In this document: in pieces, positions 5,894 to 16,825 of the stretch
Numbering within the stretch: position 1 is the stretch's first letter
Layout: each line of letters opens with the position of its first letter
Origin: Desulfovibrionaceae bacterium
GTDB taxonomy: Bacteria; Desulfobacterota; Desulfovibrionia; Desulfovibrionales; Desulfovibrionaceae
Assembly: GCA_031082225.1 (NCBI GenBank)
Contig: JAVHLG010000006.1
Location: forward strand, 16,467-80,466
DNA length: 64,000 nucleotides
Reading direction: 5' to 3'
Notes under the pieces: model-generated
Told to the model about the DNA's origin: nothing
What the model saw: only the letters and a program-made list of their open reading frames with translations
The model's database searches: none
Made by a program: the position numbers and the translations under genes

Positions 5894-7045
5894 TTAATCC
5901 TCGGCAACCTCTAAAACATGGTTTCCCTGGTACACTGTGACTCTCAGTGCATGTCCGTTGTTATGGAGGCCACGAAATAGCTGTTTTACAGCGTTCACGA
6001 AGTCGCAATGAAATTGCGATGCGGCAGACATTTCGTAGTCGTTTTTTGACTTCCATATGAGCTTGTACCGGGCACGGCTCGTCCATTCTTCAAGTTGGGT
6101 CAACAGACTGCCTGGCTCGATGCCCCATGTCTCGGCCGGATCGGCCGGGGGGGGCGTTTCTGGTGGGACGGGAACGGGCTCCGGAGCTGGTGTGGACGGC
6201 GACGGGGCCGAGGCCTGCGCCGCAGGTGACGGCGTCTGCTCGGGGAGAGAGGCCGGGGCTTCTTTGTGCAGGTATGGCGACTGGCTCTGCGTGCCCTGGG
6301 CCACCGGGGCAGGAGGAGTCACGGCAGGCGATGTGGCCGGTGCAGCCTCAAGCGACGATGCCAAAACGGGTGGAGTCACTTTCGCGGTGTCCACCGGCGG
6401 AAGCTGCTGAAGGACGGGGGTAACCGCAGGCATGAGCTCCGGAGCTGGTGCGGCCGGCGGCAGGGCTGGGGCTTGCCCTGTGGCAGGCTGCGTCGGTCCG
6501 GACGACGAGGCCGGAGCCTGGGGGGCGGCATCGGGCAGCGTGTAGGACTCAGGAGCCGCCGCAGGAGAGCTCTGTTGGGCATGAAAAGGCTCATCGAGAG
6601 GTGCTGGTGCCTGACGGGTCGATTTCGCTCCAAGGCGGCGCGTCGTACCAAATCCAACGCCGTCCGAGGTTCTCACCTGCAGGTAGCAGACCGAGGGCGT
6701 AGTCTCCTGCACGATGTCGAGAGTGTACGCCACCAGGATACCGGGAGACTCGGGAGTAGCCGGCGCAGACACGGCAAACCCTCGTCCTCTGAGGGCGGAT
6801 TCGAAGTCGGTCCCAAAATACGTGTCGGTCTGCACCAGGGCCAGGGTGGTACCCCCTGGAGGGAATTTCTGGGCAAGGGTGTCGGCGGCCTGGTCGGCCA
6901 AAGCCCGGCCATCGTCCGGATAGTCCTGGCTCATTCCGTCATAGGCAGACAGAGCCAGACCTCCGGAGCCCCGATGTTGATGGACGCAACCAGCACCCCC
7001 AAAAAGGAGGACTACACTCACAGTAATGAAGATGATACGTGCCAT
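5894..7045 (-). CDS. Fusion lipoprotein: TrbH-like N-domain, Pro/Ala-rich linker, PilL/TcpQ-like C-domain
   Basis: The lipobox is LLFGGAGC. The N-terminal ~140 aa (ALADQAADTLAQKFPPGGTTLALVQTDTYFGTDFESALRGRGFAV...LVAYTLD) follow the TrbH pattern. The linker of about 160 aa is P/A/S-rich. The C-terminal ~80 aa (WGIEPGSLLTQLEEWTSRARYKLIWKSKNDYEM...AVKQLF...VYQGNHVLEV) follow the TcpQ/PilL pattern. Confidence 0.65.
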   Translation of the reverse strand: MARIIFITVSVVLLFGGAGCVHQHRGSGGLALSAYDGMSQDYPDDGRALADQAADTLAQKFPPGGTTLALVQTDTYFGTDFESALRGRGFAVSAPATPESPGILVAYTLDIVQETTPSVCYLQVRTSDGVGFGTTRRLGAKSTRQAPAPLDEPFHAQQSSPAAAPESYTLPDAAPQAPASSSGPTQPATGQAPALPPAAPAPELMPAVTPVLQQLPPVDTAKVTPPVLASSLEAAPATSPAVTPPAPVAQGTQSQSPYLHKEAPASLPEQTPSPAAQASAPSPSTPAPEPVPVPPETPPPADPAETWGIEPGSLLTQLEEWTSRARYKLIWKSKNDYEMSAASQFHCDFVNAVKQLFRGLHNNGHALRVTVYQGNHVLEVAED

Positions 7046-8789: not shown

Positions 8790-9032
8790 CTATGAGGGTT
8801 GCTTGAAACCGGTGAGAGCTCCGGCGCGAAGCAGTCGCAGCTTTTGTATTTCCTTGCGCATCTCCGTGAGACTTGCGGACTCGCGCAATGATTTCAGTCT
8901 GCATTTCACAGCATCGACCTTGAAGAAGAGAAAATCCATCTCAGTTTGAAGATCTTCGAGCTGTTCAAGAAGACATTCAAAATCAAGATCACTTTTTTCC
9001 ATGTCCAAAACTTCACCTGGGTTTGTGCTCAT
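8790..9032 (-). CDS. Small acidic coiled-coil hypothetical protein
   Basis: 80-aa ORF between trbL and trbF, with heptad-like LEQLEDLQTEMD...LKSLRES...IQKLRLL. I recognise no family. Confidence 0.4.
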   Translation of the reverse strand: MSTNPGEVLDMEKSDLDFECLLEQLEDLQTEMDFLFFKVDAVKCRLKSLRESASLTEMRKEIQKLRLLRAGALTGFKQPS

Positions 9033-9232
9033 TGGAGTTCAAAATGGAACATCGTCCATCCCCTCCGTATCCGGCGGGGAGGCTGGATCAAACTCTTCAG
9101 CCGAAGGACCGGATTCCGCTTGTTTCTATTGGCCGCCTTTCGAGTAGCTGGATGTATGCGCGGGGGCCGCGTTATCATCGTCTTTTCGTTCTTTAGGCCT
9201 TTCGGTTTTGCAATATTTCGTTCTTTCGTTCT

Positions 9233-10447
9233 TTACGCCTTCCCTCCACCTCCGGATTCACCCGCACTTCCTCCACTGGAGTCTCCGGAACTACCTTTCG
9301 GCTGAGGCGGATTCATCTTCATCTCCTGCAGGCGTGATTTCAGGTGGACACCCATACTTTCAGTGTGCGAAAATTTTCCCTGCGGCTGCTGACGCGCAGC
9401 TTGGTGGCCATCCCACATGGCCCGGGCCGTTGAGGCGACCCGGCCCATGCCTGACTTCCCGGCGGCCCCTGCCACCTGGGAAGCGGTACCGAGGTTTCTG
9501 GCGGTCTGGATCGCCCCCATGGCCCCTCCCACGGCTCCACCCACGGCCCCGCCGACCATGCCGCCCGCCATGCTGGCCAAGCCGCTGCCACTGCTGCTCA
9601 CGTTGGAGCCGGAGATGATCCCGGATGCGATGCCGGGCACTTCCTTGGTCAGGAGCAGGAGGATCAGAACAGCCGCGACGTTGGCCACCAGATCAGCGAT
9701 GGAGAGACTGCCCGTTGACATGCTGCTGATGAACTGCACCCCGATCCCGGCGACGAGGGTCATGACCAGGAGTTTGAACCCGGTAGCAAAGACGTAGCGG
9801 ATGACGTTCACAGCATAGTCCTTGAAGAGCGTGCTCCCGCCCAATCCCATAAGAAGAACGGCCGCTGCAACGCCGATGTAGGCCTCACATTTCGCGAGAA
9901 TTATCATCCCAGTAATCAGGGCAAAGCAAATCAAAGCGATTGCGCATAGGACAATGATGATGAGACCTTTTATTGGCTCCCATCCGGAAAAGCTTTCAAA
10001 GGCAGATACAACCATATTTACACCTATCTCGACGGGGTCTTCAACATTGAACGACGGAGATACATCCCCTGCCAAGGCTGGGACCCCTTTTATTATTCCG
10101 TTTGTCCAGGATTCGTAATTTTCTATGCACCAAAGGAAAAAACCAATCATGAGCAGCATCATGATAAACTGCTTAATGATATTTGGGATGTCGTCTCGAT
10201 TGAGTGCGACATTTACCCCGAGCATGGCTACGCTCAGCATGGCGGACCATCCAAAGAGCTTCATGGCCACCTTCTTCAATGGTTCGATCCATTGTTGTGT
10301 GGCTTGTTCATATTTGCCGACAATCTGGCCGATAATTGTTGCTCCTCCAGTTTGAGCATAAGATTTTTCTTGCATGGCGCACACTATTGTTGCAATAATA
10401 ACTGAAACAACAACAAAGGAGATGGTAATGCGAGTGATGTCTTTCAT
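9233..10447 (-). CDS. trbL: P-type conjugative transfer protein TrbL (VirB6 family)
   Basis: I trimmed the start to the ATG at 10447 (MKDITRITISFVVVSVIIATIVCA). The protein has multiple TM segments and a Gly-rich tail (GGMVGGAVGGAVGGAMG) typical of TrbL. Confidence 0.85.
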   Translation of the reverse strand: MKDITRITISFVVVSVIIATIVCAMQEKSYAQTGGATIIGQIVGKYEQATQQWIEPLKKVAMKLFGWSAMLSVAMLGVNVALNRDDIPNIIKQFIMMLLMIGFFLWCIENYESWTNGIIKGVPALAGDVSPSFNVEDPVEIGVNMVVSAFESFSGWEPIKGLIIIVLCAIALICFALITGMIILAKCEAYIGVAAAVLLMGLGGSTLFKDYAVNVIRYVFATGFKLLVMTLVAGIGVQFISSMSTGSLSIADLVANVAAVLILLLLTKEVPGIASGIISGSNVSSSGSGLASMAGGMVGGAVGGAVGGAMGAIQTARNLGTASQVAGAAGKSGMGRVASTARAMWDGHQAARQQPQGKFSHTESMGVHLKSRLQEMKMNPPQPKGSSGDSSGGSAGESGGGGKA

Positions 10448-10664
10448 GCTTATTTCTCTGCTTGTCTTTATGATTTCTGCATGCAGCGATTCATCAAAGA
10501 TTGATGATCTGACTAAGGAAAACGCCGCTCTTGCAACAGAACTCAAAGAATGCCGTGAAGCTGCAAAAAAGACAGCTCTGCGGGAAGAAGATAATAAAAA
10601 AGAAGCAGAAGCGTTTAAACGCGTCAAAGAGGAGTTAAAAAACATGAATAAAACACCTTTTTAA
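10428..10664 (+). CDS. Small lipoprotein encoded antisense in the trbJ-trbL gap (trbK position)
   Basis: An AAGGAG Shine-Dalgarno lies 6 nt before the ATG at 10428. The N-terminus is MRVMSFMLISLLVFMISAC, with a lipobox ISAC. The mature part is about 60 aa, charged and helical. The last 27 aa are about 70% identical to the TrbJ C-terminus. Confidence 0.55.
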   Translation: MRVMSFMLISLLVFMISACSDSSKIDDLTKENAALATELKECREAAKKTALREEDNKKEAEAFKRVKEELKNMNKTPF

Positions 10665-11461
10665 AATTGTGTCTTGTTCATGTTGCTTAGTTCGTTTTTA
10701 ACTCGTTGAAATGCCTCTATCTCTTTTGCGTTTTCTTCATCTTTGATTTGTTGTCTCTTGCTGTCCTCTGCCATTTTTTGAACGTCAGCCTGGGCAGAAA
10801 CAGCAAGGAGCTGCCTGAGTTTTTGCATCTCATGGAGTTGCATGCCAGCGAGTTGGTTGCCCGCCTGAATGGCCTGCATCTGTCCCTCAGGCGTATCCAG
10901 AAGGTCGTTGAGTTGGGAATCCAGCTCAGCGGCCTTCTCTTCCAATTCTTGGATTTGCTGCCCCGACACCTGGATGGCCGCCTTTTGGGCGCGATCCCCA
11001 TCGTCCGACATCTTGGAGTACATCTCGCGGTATTGGCTCGCCGCGTTGGCCGACCGGGCAATGTCCATGATGCCCGTTCGGCCGGTGTAGACCTGATCAA
11101 AGATCTGGCTCAGTCCCTCCACATCGCCACGCAACGTGTCCAGACTGCGGGTGAGGGACATCAACCTGTTGAATTCACCTTGGAGTTTGCTTTTGATTTG
11201 TCCTGGCAGGCTGACCGTGTTTTTGATCATGTTCTCTAATTGATCGAACGTGTTTGTGACCATCTGTATCTGTTGCTGCGTTTGTTCGATGGCTTCGCTG
11301 ACCTGAGTATAAAGCTCTTGGAGCTGGGATAGATTCGTTATCCTGTCCAGGGCCTGAGTGACCCATTCAGAGCAGTTTGTGCAGTGAACCACCCACTGTG
11401 CATGTGCAGATGTGCTCATCAGGATCATTGCCAGCATGAAAATGACGCGAAGAGATTTCAT
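10661..11461 (-). CDS. trbJ: P-type conjugative transfer protein TrbJ (VirB5-like)
   Basis: I set the start at the ATG at 11461, which has a GGAG 6 nt upstream. The track start at 11473 is a TTG. The signal peptide is MKSLRVIFMLAMILMSTSAHA. The coiled-coil TrbJ pattern is WVVHCTNCSEWVTQALDRITNLSQLQELY. Confidence 0.85.
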   Translation of the reverse strand: MKSLRVIFMLAMILMSTSAHAQWVVHCTNCSEWVTQALDRITNLSQLQELYTQVSEAIEQTQQQIQMVTNTFDQLENMIKNTVSLPGQIKSKLQGEFNRLMSLTRSLDTLRGDVEGLSQIFDQVYTGRTGIMDIARSANAASQYREMYSKMSDDGDRAQKAAIQVSGQQIQELEEKAAELDSQLNDLLDTPEGQMQAIQAGNQLAGMQLHEMQKLRQLLAVSAQADVQKMAEDSKRQQIKDEENAKEIEAFQRVKNELSNMNKTQF

Positions 11462-11482
11462 GGTTTTCTCCAATACGCTTTG

Positions 11483-13891
11483 TTATGACGCACGTTCACG
11501 AAGCCATTCCATTTGCCATGTCTCTCCATGAGAGACTTCAAGCTCTTTTATCCTGGAGATGCTATCAGGATCACTTACACCAACGAACGCCAGAGTCTCT
11601 TTCTGTAACGCTAATTGTATAAGCCTGCGTCCGTTCGGAGTATCCATGTAATAATCACGCTTTGGTGTAGCTGAGGCAATGATTTCAATCTGTCGGTCAT
11701 TTAAACCGAATTTTTTGTACATATCTGCGCGAGTCTCTTGCCGTGCCGTCAGGTCGGCCAAATAAATTTTTGTCGGACACGATTCGACAATGACGTCCAT
11801 GATTCCTGAACTGGCAACGTCAGTAATGCTTTGGGTGGCCAGGATGACAGCGCAGTTCTTTTTGCGCATGACCTTCAATTGTTCTTTGATTTTGGCCTTG
11901 GCAACGGGATCGGCAAACATCACCCAGGCCTCATCGAATATGATGAAACCAGGTTGGCCATGCAGGGATCGCTCGATGTAGCGAAACAGGTAGAGCAGGA
12001 CAGGAATGATATTCTTTGGGCCAAAAGCCATAAGTTCTTCGATTTCAAAGACCATGAAACGTGATATTCCAAAGGAATCCTCGGAAGCGTCGAGCAGGCT
12101 GCCCATGGCTCCTTCAATGGTATAGTGCGTCAGCCCTTCCTTGATACGGTGATCCTGCACCGCGTCCTTGAAATGCGACAGGCTCCGGAACTCCTTCGAG
12201 TCGGCACGGAGCTGGACCATGGCGTTGTGGATGGCCGCACGGTTGCCGGGCGTGACCGTGGTCCCCTGGAGCTCAAGGAGCGTTGCGATCCATTCCTCGG
12301 CCCAGGACATGTCGGCGGGGTCGTCGATGTGGGCCAGGGGCGCGAAGGACAGGGCTTTGCCCGTGCCGATCTCGTAATGGGCGCCGCCGCACCCCTTGCA
12401 GGCGGCGTACATGCTCATGCCCTTGTCAAAGGCAAAAATCTGGGCGTTCGCGTATCTCCGGGTCTGAACGGCGATGAGCGCCAAAAGGGTGGACTTGCCG
12501 GAGCCGGTCGGGCCAAGAATCGCGGTGTGCCCCAGGTCGCGTACATGCAGGTTGAACCAAAACGGCGTGGAACCGTCTGTGGTGCAGACCATCAGCGGCG
12601 GTGAATGCTCTGGATAGAACGGGCACGGGCAGAATTGTTCGCCCGTCCACACGCTGGACAGGGGAAGCAGGTCTGCCAGGTTGAGGGTGTTGAGGATCGG
12701 CCGGCGCAGGTTCGCAAACCAGTTGCCAGGATGCGTCCCGAGCCAGGCTTCCACAGCATTGATGCGCTCAAAGCGGCAGCCGAAACCGAGACTGAGGATC
12801 AGGCGGCGCAGCTCACGTGCCCAGTCGCGTAGAAGTTCCCTGTTGTCGTGCTGGAGGACGATGCACGACGTCAGGAATCCCGCTCCCACGCGGCCGCCCT
12901 GGACGTCCACGAGCGCCTGTTCGGCGTCCTCGACCATCAGGGCCGCGTCACGGTTGGCACGGGCGTTGGGGTTGTTGAAAAACTTGTCGATGAATCGGAA
13001 TACCTTCTGCTGCCAGCCTTTCCGGAAGCTGTTGATTTCCTTGGTAGCTTCCAGTTGGTCCATGCAGATGAACCGGGTGGAATACCGATATTGAAGTTTG
13101 AGGCCGTCCAGGGCCGCCAGCATGGCGGGCCAAGATTCTTGCGGAAAACCGTCAATGCCCAGAACCGCAATGTGTTGTTCACCAACCCTGGGAGCGAGCC
13201 CCGCGATGAAATCGTCGGAGCCCAGGAGGGCATCCAGATACATCGGGATTTTGGGGACACGTACTGGCTGTTCCATCCCGGTGATGCAATGCTGAATATG
13301 AGAGAGCAAAGAACTGTACAAATGTTCTGTGCCGTCATCGTCAACGATGCTGTAATCGTTGAGACGGCGTAGTTTAAGGATTGATGATAGCGCGTCATCC
13401 AGTTCAGAGATGGTGTTTTGAAACGCGTTGATCGCCCGTTCCAGGGCGTTGGATTGCTGCATTCCGGTTTGCGCCAAAGATGAAACCCTGTCACTGCCGA
13501 ATGGAATTTTATAACTCAGGAGAATGACGGTTTTTGTCCGGAAACAGACATCATCACTGAAGAATTTCCGGCGCTCATCGTCGATAAGCTGCGAAACATG
13601 ATCCGGAAAGTGGCTGGCCTCGCGCGGAGGATAGGCGTGGTAGTTCGTCCGGACGGCATCCACCTGGATCATCCAGCCGGAGCCAAGAAGTCTCACGGCG
13701 CTGTTGAACTGCATGGAGACGTAGGCGAGTTCGTCTTCCGTGGAACTGGCCGTGTCCTGGCCCCGGGCTGTGAATCCAGCGATAAGCGTGCCGTCTTTGC
13801 AAAGGACCACGCCCGGCGCGCAAAGGACGGCATAGGGCAGTAAATCCGAAAAACCGCGCTTCTGCGTCCGGAAGTTTCGCAGGTTGAGCAT
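11483..13891 (-). CDS. trbE: Conjugal transfer ATPase TrbE (VirB4 family)
   Basis: 802 aa with the Walker A GPTGSGKSTLL and the Walker B IIFDEAW. Confidence 0.92.
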   Translation of the reverse strand: MLNLRNFRTQKRGFSDLLPYAVLCAPGVVLCKDGTLIAGFTARGQDTASSTEDELAYVSMQFNSAVRLLGSGWMIQVDAVRTNYHAYPPREASHFPDHVSQLIDDERRKFFSDDVCFRTKTVILLSYKIPFGSDRVSSLAQTGMQQSNALERAINAFQNTISELDDALSSILKLRRLNDYSIVDDDGTEHLYSSLLSHIQHCITGMEQPVRVPKIPMYLDALLGSDDFIAGLAPRVGEQHIAVLGIDGFPQESWPAMLAALDGLKLQYRYSTRFICMDQLEATKEINSFRKGWQQKVFRFIDKFFNNPNARANRDAALMVEDAEQALVDVQGGRVGAGFLTSCIVLQHDNRELLRDWARELRRLILSLGFGCRFERINAVEAWLGTHPGNWFANLRRPILNTLNLADLLPLSSVWTGEQFCPCPFYPEHSPPLMVCTTDGSTPFWFNLHVRDLGHTAILGPTGSGKSTLLALIAVQTRRYANAQIFAFDKGMSMYAACKGCGGAHYEIGTGKALSFAPLAHIDDPADMSWAEEWIATLLELQGTTVTPGNRAAIHNAMVQLRADSKEFRSLSHFKDAVQDHRIKEGLTHYTIEGAMGSLLDASEDSFGISRFMVFEIEELMAFGPKNIIPVLLYLFRYIERSLHGQPGFIIFDEAWVMFADPVAKAKIKEQLKVMRKKNCAVILATQSITDVASSGIMDVIVESCPTKIYLADLTARQETRADMYKKFGLNDRQIEIIASATPKRDYYMDTPNGRRLIQLALQKETLAFVGVSDPDSISRIKELEVSHGETWQMEWLRERAS

Positions 13892-15980: not shown

Positions 15981-16825
15981 TGCATCGCTCCGATGGAAAT
16001 GACGTTGGCGTTTTGGAGCTCCTCTTTCACCTCGTTCCAGTAACGCTTCAGCCGATGCCGGGTCATGATCGAACGCGAGCTGCTGTTGATCGCGGCGTCG
16101 AACGTTTCACGCCGCGTGAGCATCGCGGCAAGGTCTTTTCCGAAGGTTGCCGCATCGTGGACCGGCAAGGTGACAACCGCATCAATGGCGAGGCCCAGGT
16201 TTTGGTAGATGCTGAAATCAAAGAATTCCTTGCCTTCGATCTGGATTCTGCCGTCTTTGGGGTTGAGCCAGACGACGAGAGGAATGTCGGAAACCAACTG
16301 GCGCAGGATGTGCTCTCCCTGGATTTCGAAATCGAAAGTGGGCACGTCTTCCGCAGGCTCGCCAAAGATTGGCGCGCTTTTAAAGTTGAAAATCAGGTCG
16401 GAGAGGCCGGTCAGGCTGTCGACCAGGCCACCGCCACCGGCAATCACCGAATGAAGCACGATTTCGTGTCCATGCTGCCGATAAACCCCCTCGGCTCCAA
16501 ATGCATCGACATCGAGGAGGTACTGGCAAAGTTGGGGATAGGCCGACGATCCGGTGTCGATCACCAGGTGGCCGTCTTCGGGCATGGCCTCCGCGATGTC
16601 GGCAATTCGGTCGAATTCCAACGGCTCGATCCTGTTTCCCTCCGCGACGATCGGGAGCACCACCACATCCAACTCACGGTAGGCACCGAACGTGTTGTTG
16701 GCGGCATCCACGTCAATGCCTCGCGCACTGACGCCGGATTCGATCAAATATTGGAGGAGAGTCACCGACGAAAATGATTTTCCAACACCACCCTTGGCAT
16801 TTATAATGTAATGTAGTGTCGCCAT
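15977..16825 (-). CDS. ParA/MinD-type P-loop ATPase (TraL-like)
   Basis: The N-terminus carries the deviant Walker A INAKGGVGKS, and a Walker B-like LVIDTGS is present. Confidence 0.75.
   Translation of the reverse strand: MATLHYIINAKGGVGKSFSSVTLLQYLIESGVSARGIDVDAANNTFGAYRELDVVVLPIVAEGNRIEPLEFDRIADIAEAMPEDGHLVIDTGSSAYPQLCQYLLDVDAFGAEGVYRQHGHEIVLHSVIAGGGGLVDSLTGLSDLIFNFKSAPIFGEPAEDVPTFDFEIQGEHILRQLVSDIPLVVWLNPKDGRIQIEGKEFFDFSIYQNLGLAIDAVVTLPVHDAATFGKDLAAMLTRRETFDAAINSSSRSIMTRHRLKRYWNEVKEELQNANVISIGAMQ

Follow-up and report, generated by a model that had tools for sequence, protein, structure and literature searches.

A small antisense lipoprotein gene in the trbK slot of a Desulfovibrionaceae trb operon ends in a copy of the cognate TrbJ tail and is a candidate entry-exclusion gene

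TrbK of the IncP-1 plasmids (RP4/RK2, R751), a small lipoprotein encoded between trbJ and trbL, is an experimentally proven entry-exclusion factor that is dispensable for transfer (PMC8923210; PMC11045733). Its C-terminus is described as essential for exclusion (Haase 1996, as cited in PMC8923210), and TrbJ itself adds to exclusion in RP4 recipients (PMC11045733; bioRxiv 10.64898/2026.09.24.754286), as it is described to act with TrbK in Ti plasmids (Cho et al. 2009, as cited in PMC3907764). In Ti-type plasmids the same slot holds a TrbK with a membrane-helix N-terminus and no lipobox, and in IncN and IncW plasmids (R46/pKM101, R388) the lipoprotein EexN is encoded between virB5 and virB6. The exclusion proteins of F (TraS) and SXT/R391 (Eex) are polytopic proteins of the recipient inner membrane that recognize the cognate donor mating-channel protein, the VirB6-like TraG, and no peptide copying of a machine component has been described for them; the specificities of TraS and TraG co-vary within the pair (PMC12624023). 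VirB5 is found first on VirB6 and later at the pilus tip, and the 2025 review of type IV secretion system (T4SS) mechanisms that describes this names no donor target for the exclusion proteins of VirB/Trb-type (MPF_T) conjugation (PMC12624023). Here, a small gene in the trbK slot of a trb operon is analyzed, which is located on contig JAVHLG010000006.1 of a Desulfovibrionaceae bacterium (GCA_031082225.1) within a stretch of 64,000 nucleotides (nt; positions 16,467 to 80,466 of the forward strand), hereafter called the window.

The minus strand of the window carries a P-type (Trb) T4SS operon, in which TrbF and TrbG are the next genes (Table 1). The 213 nt between trbJ and trbL (10448-10660) are occupied by a plus-strand open reading frame (ORF) for a 78-amino-acid (aa) lipoprotein, which is already called in a public collection. 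It is convergent with trbJ and divergent from trbL; the 5′ ends of the small gene and trbL (ATG at 10447, minus strand) overlap by 20 nt, and its stop codon and that of trbJ overlap in TTAA (10661-10664). An earlier note on this DNA, made without database searches and hereafter called the sequence-only reading, had described the ORF with its ATG at 10428, an AAGGAG 6 nt upstream and a lipobox, the 213-nt gap and the TTAA overlap, and had assigned the gap to the trbK slot. All of this was borne out by direct reading, and the slot is the one where IncP, Ti, IncN and IncW systems hold their exclusion gene. Like TrbK of IncP-1, the product is a small lipid-anchored protein encoded between trbJ and trbL. 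Unlike trbK, the gene lies on the opposite strand and overlaps trbL with its 5′ end, and the residue following the lipid-modified Cys19 (codon 10482-10484) is Ser instead of Asp. The same-strand, co-transcribed layout of MPF_T exclusion genes, to which both EexN and the translationally coupled Ti-type TrbK conform, is therefore not found in the window.

The final 27 residues of the lipoprotein are identical to the tail of TrbJ at 18 positions, with a nucleotide identity of 58/84. The likeness had been seen in the sequence-only reading, whose count of 19/27 has to be lowered, as the 19th match is the stop codon. When all six frames of the 4.08-Mb genome that contains the window were searched with the ORF, only the ORF itself and the TrbJ tail were returned, the latter with E = 1.2e-7, which is beyond a chance match. 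The cognate tail score is 98, compared to at most 30 for non-cognate pairs.

The match could be followed across related loci. A TrbJ search of 200 Desulfovibrionaceae genomes resulted in 30 loci, in which trbJ-trbL gaps of more than ~100 nt (109-461 nt) are filled by an antisense gene whose product is exported and mostly a lipoprotein; at 12 of the 18 loci of this kind, the stop codons of this gene and of trbJ overlap by 4 nt. The tails vary widely among the loci, e.g., ...PVTSNNF, ...SKADPF and ...KKSPGNTF. Nevertheless, for 13 of the 18 antisense proteins the own TrbJ tail is the best match, with a mean cognate score of 44 compared to 19 for non-cognate pairs (standard deviation 5.5), and none of 20000 permutations reached the observed sum. 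Other families of the phylum yielded further cases of tail copying, with slot genes of either orientation.

Proteins encoded in the slot on the same strand as the operon behave alike, with a mean cognate tail score of 53.8 compared to 17.7 for non-cognate tails in ten pairs (0/20000 permutations). This group includes proven exclusion proteins. TrbK of the Ti plasmid shares ...RGGQ.M.PRW with its own TrbJ, so that its last 12 residues nearly copy the cognate tail (score 72 vs. 25), and TrbK of R751 shares ...SP.R.W with its TrbJ (...SPARTW and ...SPKREW, score 53 vs. at most 21 for non-cognate tails). Unnamed slot proteins of Pseudomonas and Comamonas plasmids share ...KGY with TrbJ. On the Nitrosomonas europaea plasmid NZ_CP157070, an unannotated 64-aa ORF in the trbK slot (L038:3060-3254, plus strand) ends in ...KPHNSPSKEF, and the TrbJ tail in ...KPVNSSGKEF. 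A full-text literature search found no published statement of the similarity between TrbJ and TrbK tails, although an earlier description is possible, at least for Ti plasmids.

Over all TrbJ loci examined, the last residue of the TrbJ tails and of their copies is almost always aromatic (F, W or Y) and follows small or polar residues; the exceptions are few (L014, L033, L051), and in these both partners change. Larger antisense slot proteins of ~115-190 aa, with the motif G-(W/A/Y)-W-(K/Q/S)-(S/T) directly behind the signal peptide, occur at L016, L017, L021, L024, L030, L034, L043, L047, L054 and L057. Some of them bear the cognate TrbJ tail, which those of the TrbJ sub-clade L016, L021, L047, L054 and L057 do not. 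In another class of the phylum, RefSeq lists an antisense hypothetical lipoprotein between trbJ and trbL on the Desulfotalea psychrophila plasmid NC_006139 (L035:3332-3661, minus strand), the tail of which does not match that of TrbJ.

While a word-based homologue search with the ORF returned nothing beyond the ORF itself, an exhaustive HMMER search of 1.84 billion representatives revealed two full-length relatives with 69% and 49% identity. Both are encoded on metagenome contigs (L066 and L067) in the same layout, antisense between the TrbL gene and the end of the TrbJ gene, and thus small lipoproteins homologous to the window protein, for which the sequence-only reading had proposed to search, do occur beside trbJ. 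The start Met and a GGAG at the same spacing are invariant in both, the lipobox Cys19 and the neighboring Ser are invariant in the three orthologues, and the tail is conserved as well. Compared to the closer orthologue, L066, the nonsynonymous divergence (dN) is 0.20 and the synonymous divergence (dS) 1.83, which results in a dN/dS of ~0.11; mismatches by codon position amount to 15/10/42, with the third position dominating. This substitution pattern identifies the ORF as a real protein-coding gene under purifying selection. A parallel change was observed in the tails: TrbJ and the lipoprotein of the window both read EAF.RVK.EL, whereas both L066 proteins read ESL.RVE.E.

These results are best explained by a decoy that would act in the recipient and exclude entry by displaying the TrbJ tail, i.e., the small gene is probably the counterpart of trbK/eex on the opposite strand. 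Among the roles considered in the sequence-only reading, an exclusion protein mimicking the tail of the VirB5-like TrbJ appears best supported, and the mimicry itself stood up, with the copy being held by selection on the protein (see below). The exclusion reading gains weight because TrbK of R751 and TrbK of Ti plasmids, both proven exclusion proteins, likewise copy the tails of their cognate TrbJ. For the mature protein, a single long helix of ~55 residues is predicted that is tethered to the membrane by its lipid and would present at its free end the C-terminal peptide copied from the TrbJ of the same element, the VirB5-type protein that is located on TrbL/VirB6 in the stalk and finally at the pilus tip. 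In a cell carrying the element, the tethered tail would serve as a decoy for an incoming cognate machine by occupying the site that normally recognizes the TrbJ tail, and mating would thereby be aborted. The most plausible places for this site are TrbL/VirB6 and the TrbJ pentamer itself. Only "self" would be blocked, as any change in the tail is accompanied by a change in its copy, and the antisense position would allow the expression of exclusion without that of the transfer operon, which is normally silent.

TrbL/VirB6 may be regarded as the leading candidate partner, because other conjugation types aim exclusion at VirB6-like proteins and because, at two closely related loci, L043 and L045, a hypervariable block extends from the TrbJ tail over the small gene into the start of trbL. 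In the oriented loci (L043 trbJ stop at 1768), the nucleotide identity of trbJ is 70-87% and falls to ~20-50% from ~38 codons before the stop codon. It remains low across the antisense gene and ~500 nt into trbL, and then rises again. In this pair, a single cassette of TrbJ tail, small gene and TrbL N-terminus seems to have been swapped or to be hypervariable, a hint that the N-terminal part of TrbL is the partner of the tail. L013/L023 and L006/L008 show a weaker form of this pattern, and the window and L066 show none.

Several observations weigh against the exclusion reading. Five of the 18 antisense slot proteins have no tail match, and therefore the tail is not obligatory for the job of the slot gene. 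The tail resemblances to TraC and TrwJ in IncN (R46) and IncW (R388) are short and individually do not exceed non-cognate scores. By sequence, the window protein is outside every named exclusion family: it has no match to TrbK_RP4 (TIGR04359, cut-off 23 bits) at E <= 0.01 and none to TrbK_Ti (TIGR04361, cut-off 50 bits), while the controls R751 TrbK and Ti TrbK scored 102 and 93.5 bits. The only exclusion-family match is to EexN (NF033894) over residues 6-48, mostly the signal peptide, with 21.2 bits (E = 2e-4) at a cut-off of 33 bits and 70.7 bits for the control R46 EexN. The AlphaFold2 model consists of one helix (residues 2-75) with a mean predicted local distance difference test (pLDDT) score of 76 and was built on three sequences only. 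It is consistent with a weak sub-threshold match to Lpp/OprI-type alanine-zipper lipoproteins (NF040598, 24.1 bits at a cut-off of 43 bits), which the protein resembles in build only, i.e., a lipid anchor and one long helix. The window protein would thus resemble exclusion lipoproteins by position, build and tail, but not by family membership, the cognate tail copy being a rule seen here and not a published one.

Among the alternatives, a donor-side accessory factor survives best, although it is considered unlikely. Here, the TrbJ-like tail would dock at the site of TrbJ in the own machine without any action in the recipient, and the protein could, for example, support assembly as a chaperone or placeholder, regulate the initiation of pili or be displayed at the surface together with the tip protein as its partner. 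Such a role fits a gene embedded in a T4SS operon, overlapping trbL and abutting trbJ, and the existence of larger slot proteins with an extra domain. A tail match as such shows only that both proteins have a common partner, and according to the title of a study cited in PMC11045733, the tip protein of pKM101 is assembled at the cell surface jointly with a partner. On the other hand, the tail-copying proteins known from the same slot (TrbK) are exclusion factors that transfer does not require (PMC8923210; PMC11045733), and 13 of the 38 loci of the antisense clade described below have no slot gene, which is more often than would be expected for a core assembly factor.

As a further alternative, selection could act on the nucleic acid instead of the peptide. 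The sequence-only reading had described an imperfect inverted duplication of about 80 nt with 19 of the inner 23 bases pairing, and this was confirmed by aligning the arms. An inverted-repeat search placed them at 10584-10662 and 10663-10741, 79 nt each, 71% complementary and without a spacer. As a hairpin, the palindrome could attenuate or stabilize the trb mRNA in the trbJ-trbL interval, or trbL could be controlled by an antisense transcript, with the ORF being incidental, and the layout does give convergent, overlapping transcription. The folding energies of -51.9 kcal/mol (plus strand) and -46.3 kcal/mol (minus strand) correspond to a z-score of ~-5 relative to dinucleotide shuffles. Plain shuffles are the wrong null model, because similar peptides encoded tail-to-tail necessarily result in a palindrome. 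For this reason, a codon-randomized null was used, in which both peptides were fixed and synonymous codons were drawn at random. It yielded mean energies of -56.6 (plus) and -51.4 kcal/mol (minus) with a standard deviation of ~8, so that the observed hairpin is within the spread and slightly weaker, and an arm identity of 0.638 ± 0.028 compared to 0.631 observed. As both values match this null, the hairpin is a by-product, and the attenuator or antisense control suggested in the sequence-only reading is not maintained by selection.

The codons point in the same direction. In the window, 10 of the 18 identical residues are encoded by different codons in the two arms, and at 11 of 14 loci the synonymous divergence of the arms from each other has reached saturation. 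Over these 14 loci, identical degenerate residues use the same codon at 48 of 130 positions, compared to 56.4 ± 5.4 expected by chance, and codons are randomized even in the best peptide matches. Recent gene conversion or duplication is ruled out by this same-codon test. In addition, the dN/dS of the ORF is low, same-strand systems retain the peptide match although a palindrome is impossible there, and no intrinsic-terminator-like site was found at the junction. A selected palindrome is therefore very improbable and is largely refuted here. Since synonymous sites are randomized while the peptides stay matched, the comparison of the two tails indicates that the match is upheld by selection on the two proteins and not by a DNA or RNA structure.

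According to the weakest alternative, the 3′ end of trbJ underwent an inverted duplication, of which a neutral remnant is open by chance, or the arrangement is an assembly artefact. An inverted duplication would leave arms that abut without a spacer and overlapping stop codons, but this alternative is refuted by purifying selection on the entire ORF and by cognate matching. The arms are 29% diverged with saturated synonymous change and a conserved peptide, and the layout recurs in independent assemblies and metagenomes.

The distribution of the two orientations was analyzed on a TrbJ tree of 51 loci, which has a deep, fully supported split. One clade comprises 38 Desulfobacterota-type loci including the window, with 25 antisense slots, 13 empty slots and no same-strand gene; a lipobox is carried by the majority of antisense slot proteins at related loci. 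The other clade (13 loci) contains nine same-strand slot genes, which belong to the classical plasmids and some Desulfobacterota loci, three loci without a slot gene and a single antisense case that is nested beside R751 (support 99/89). The clade of the window has therefore kept the antisense layout stably and for a long time, and this layout has arisen at least twice.

A candidate sigma-70-type promoter for the small gene was identified inside the 5′ coding part of trbL (Table 1). The ATAAT of its -10 element is invariant in the two orthologous loci, but this conservation is confounded by the coding of trbL on the other strand, and the promoter is a candidate only. Together with the antisense placement and the own Shine-Dalgarno sequence, it would uncouple the small gene from the trb operon.

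Beyond the window, tail copying may be the general recognition principle of entry exclusion in MPF_T conjugation, a generalization that is conceivable but slightly less likely than not. The exclusion protein would then be a membrane-tethered decoy of the C-terminal docking peptide of VirB5/TrbJ, which would account for the exclusion effect of TrbJ itself and for the need of the TrbK C-terminus. A tail that changes together with the pilus-tip protein would provide a concrete candidate peptide for the way in which TrbK/Eex lipoproteins of the IncP, Ti, IncN and IncW types recognize an incoming cognate machine, and the shared tail predicts the specificity determinant of exclusion groups. These groups would diverge as tail, copy and possibly the TrbL N-terminus are swapped or drift as one cassette. 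The Desulfobacterota clade would then represent a module that functions just as well when transcribed on its own from the antisense strand, and its layout suggests that exclusion can be uncoupled from the transfer operon. The tail rule could also serve as a sequence criterion for exclusion genes outside the named families, for example the antisense genes of this clade ("hypothetical" in the one annotated record examined) and the Nitrosomonas plasmid ORF.

Table 1. Coordinates of the trb genes, the small antisense gene and its elements in the window.
Feature	Position	Strand	Basis
trbL (VirB6-type), 404 aa	9233-10447	-	TIGR02783, 146.9 bits (cut-off 128.85); Pfam PF04610 match
Candidate sigma-70-type promoter, TTCATA, 18 nt, GATAAT	10307-10336	+	Consensus scan, 9/12 matches
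Shine-Dalgarno sequence AAGGAG, 6 nt 5′ of the ATG	10416-10421	+	Read from sequence
78-aa lipoprotein gene in the trbK/eex slot, antisense to the trb operon	10428-10664	+	Translation
Lipoprotein signal peptide, lipobox I-S-A-C, Cys19	10428-10484	+	Positive n-region, hydrophobic core, lipobox
Left arm, last 26 lipoprotein residues (TrbJ-tail copy)	10584-10661	+	Alignment, repeat search
trbJ (VirB5-type), 270 aa, TTG at 11473	10661-11473	-	TIGR02780 TrbJ_Ti, 126 bits (cut-off 100.55)
Right arm, last 26 TrbJ residues	10664-10741	-	Alignment, repeat search
TrbE	11483-13891	-	

An alternative start codon of trbJ is the ATG at 11461, four codons inside the TTG start. The frame of trbL remains open for 66 codons upstream of its real start, up to 10645, across the antisense of the lipoprotein gene, and 9233-10645 (minus strand) could trick gene callers into predicting a TrbL of 470 aa. 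This extension is a shadow of the plus-strand gene, because the TrbL proteins of relatives align from residues 1-7 of the 404-aa version. A same-strand TrbK hidden in the gap was also considered and rejected: the sole minus-strand frame is this extension, which is rich in Ser, Phe and Leu and lacks a signal peptide, and alignments with TrbL homologues begin no earlier than the ATG at 10447.

The AT-rich patch at 9900-10800 is not convincing as an imported cassette, as the GC fraction swings between 0.44 and 0.73 over the entire trb region and there is no local break in identity to L066. A blastn search of 9200-11500 against plasmids resulted in zero matches. Between trbL and trbF, an 80-aa ORF (8790-9032, minus strand) has no match to a Pfam or NCBIfam family. 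The protein encoded after TrbG (5894-7045, minus strand) combines a weak TrbH-like N-terminal match with a clear C-terminal domain of the TcpQ/PilL type (PF10671, E = 8e-17).

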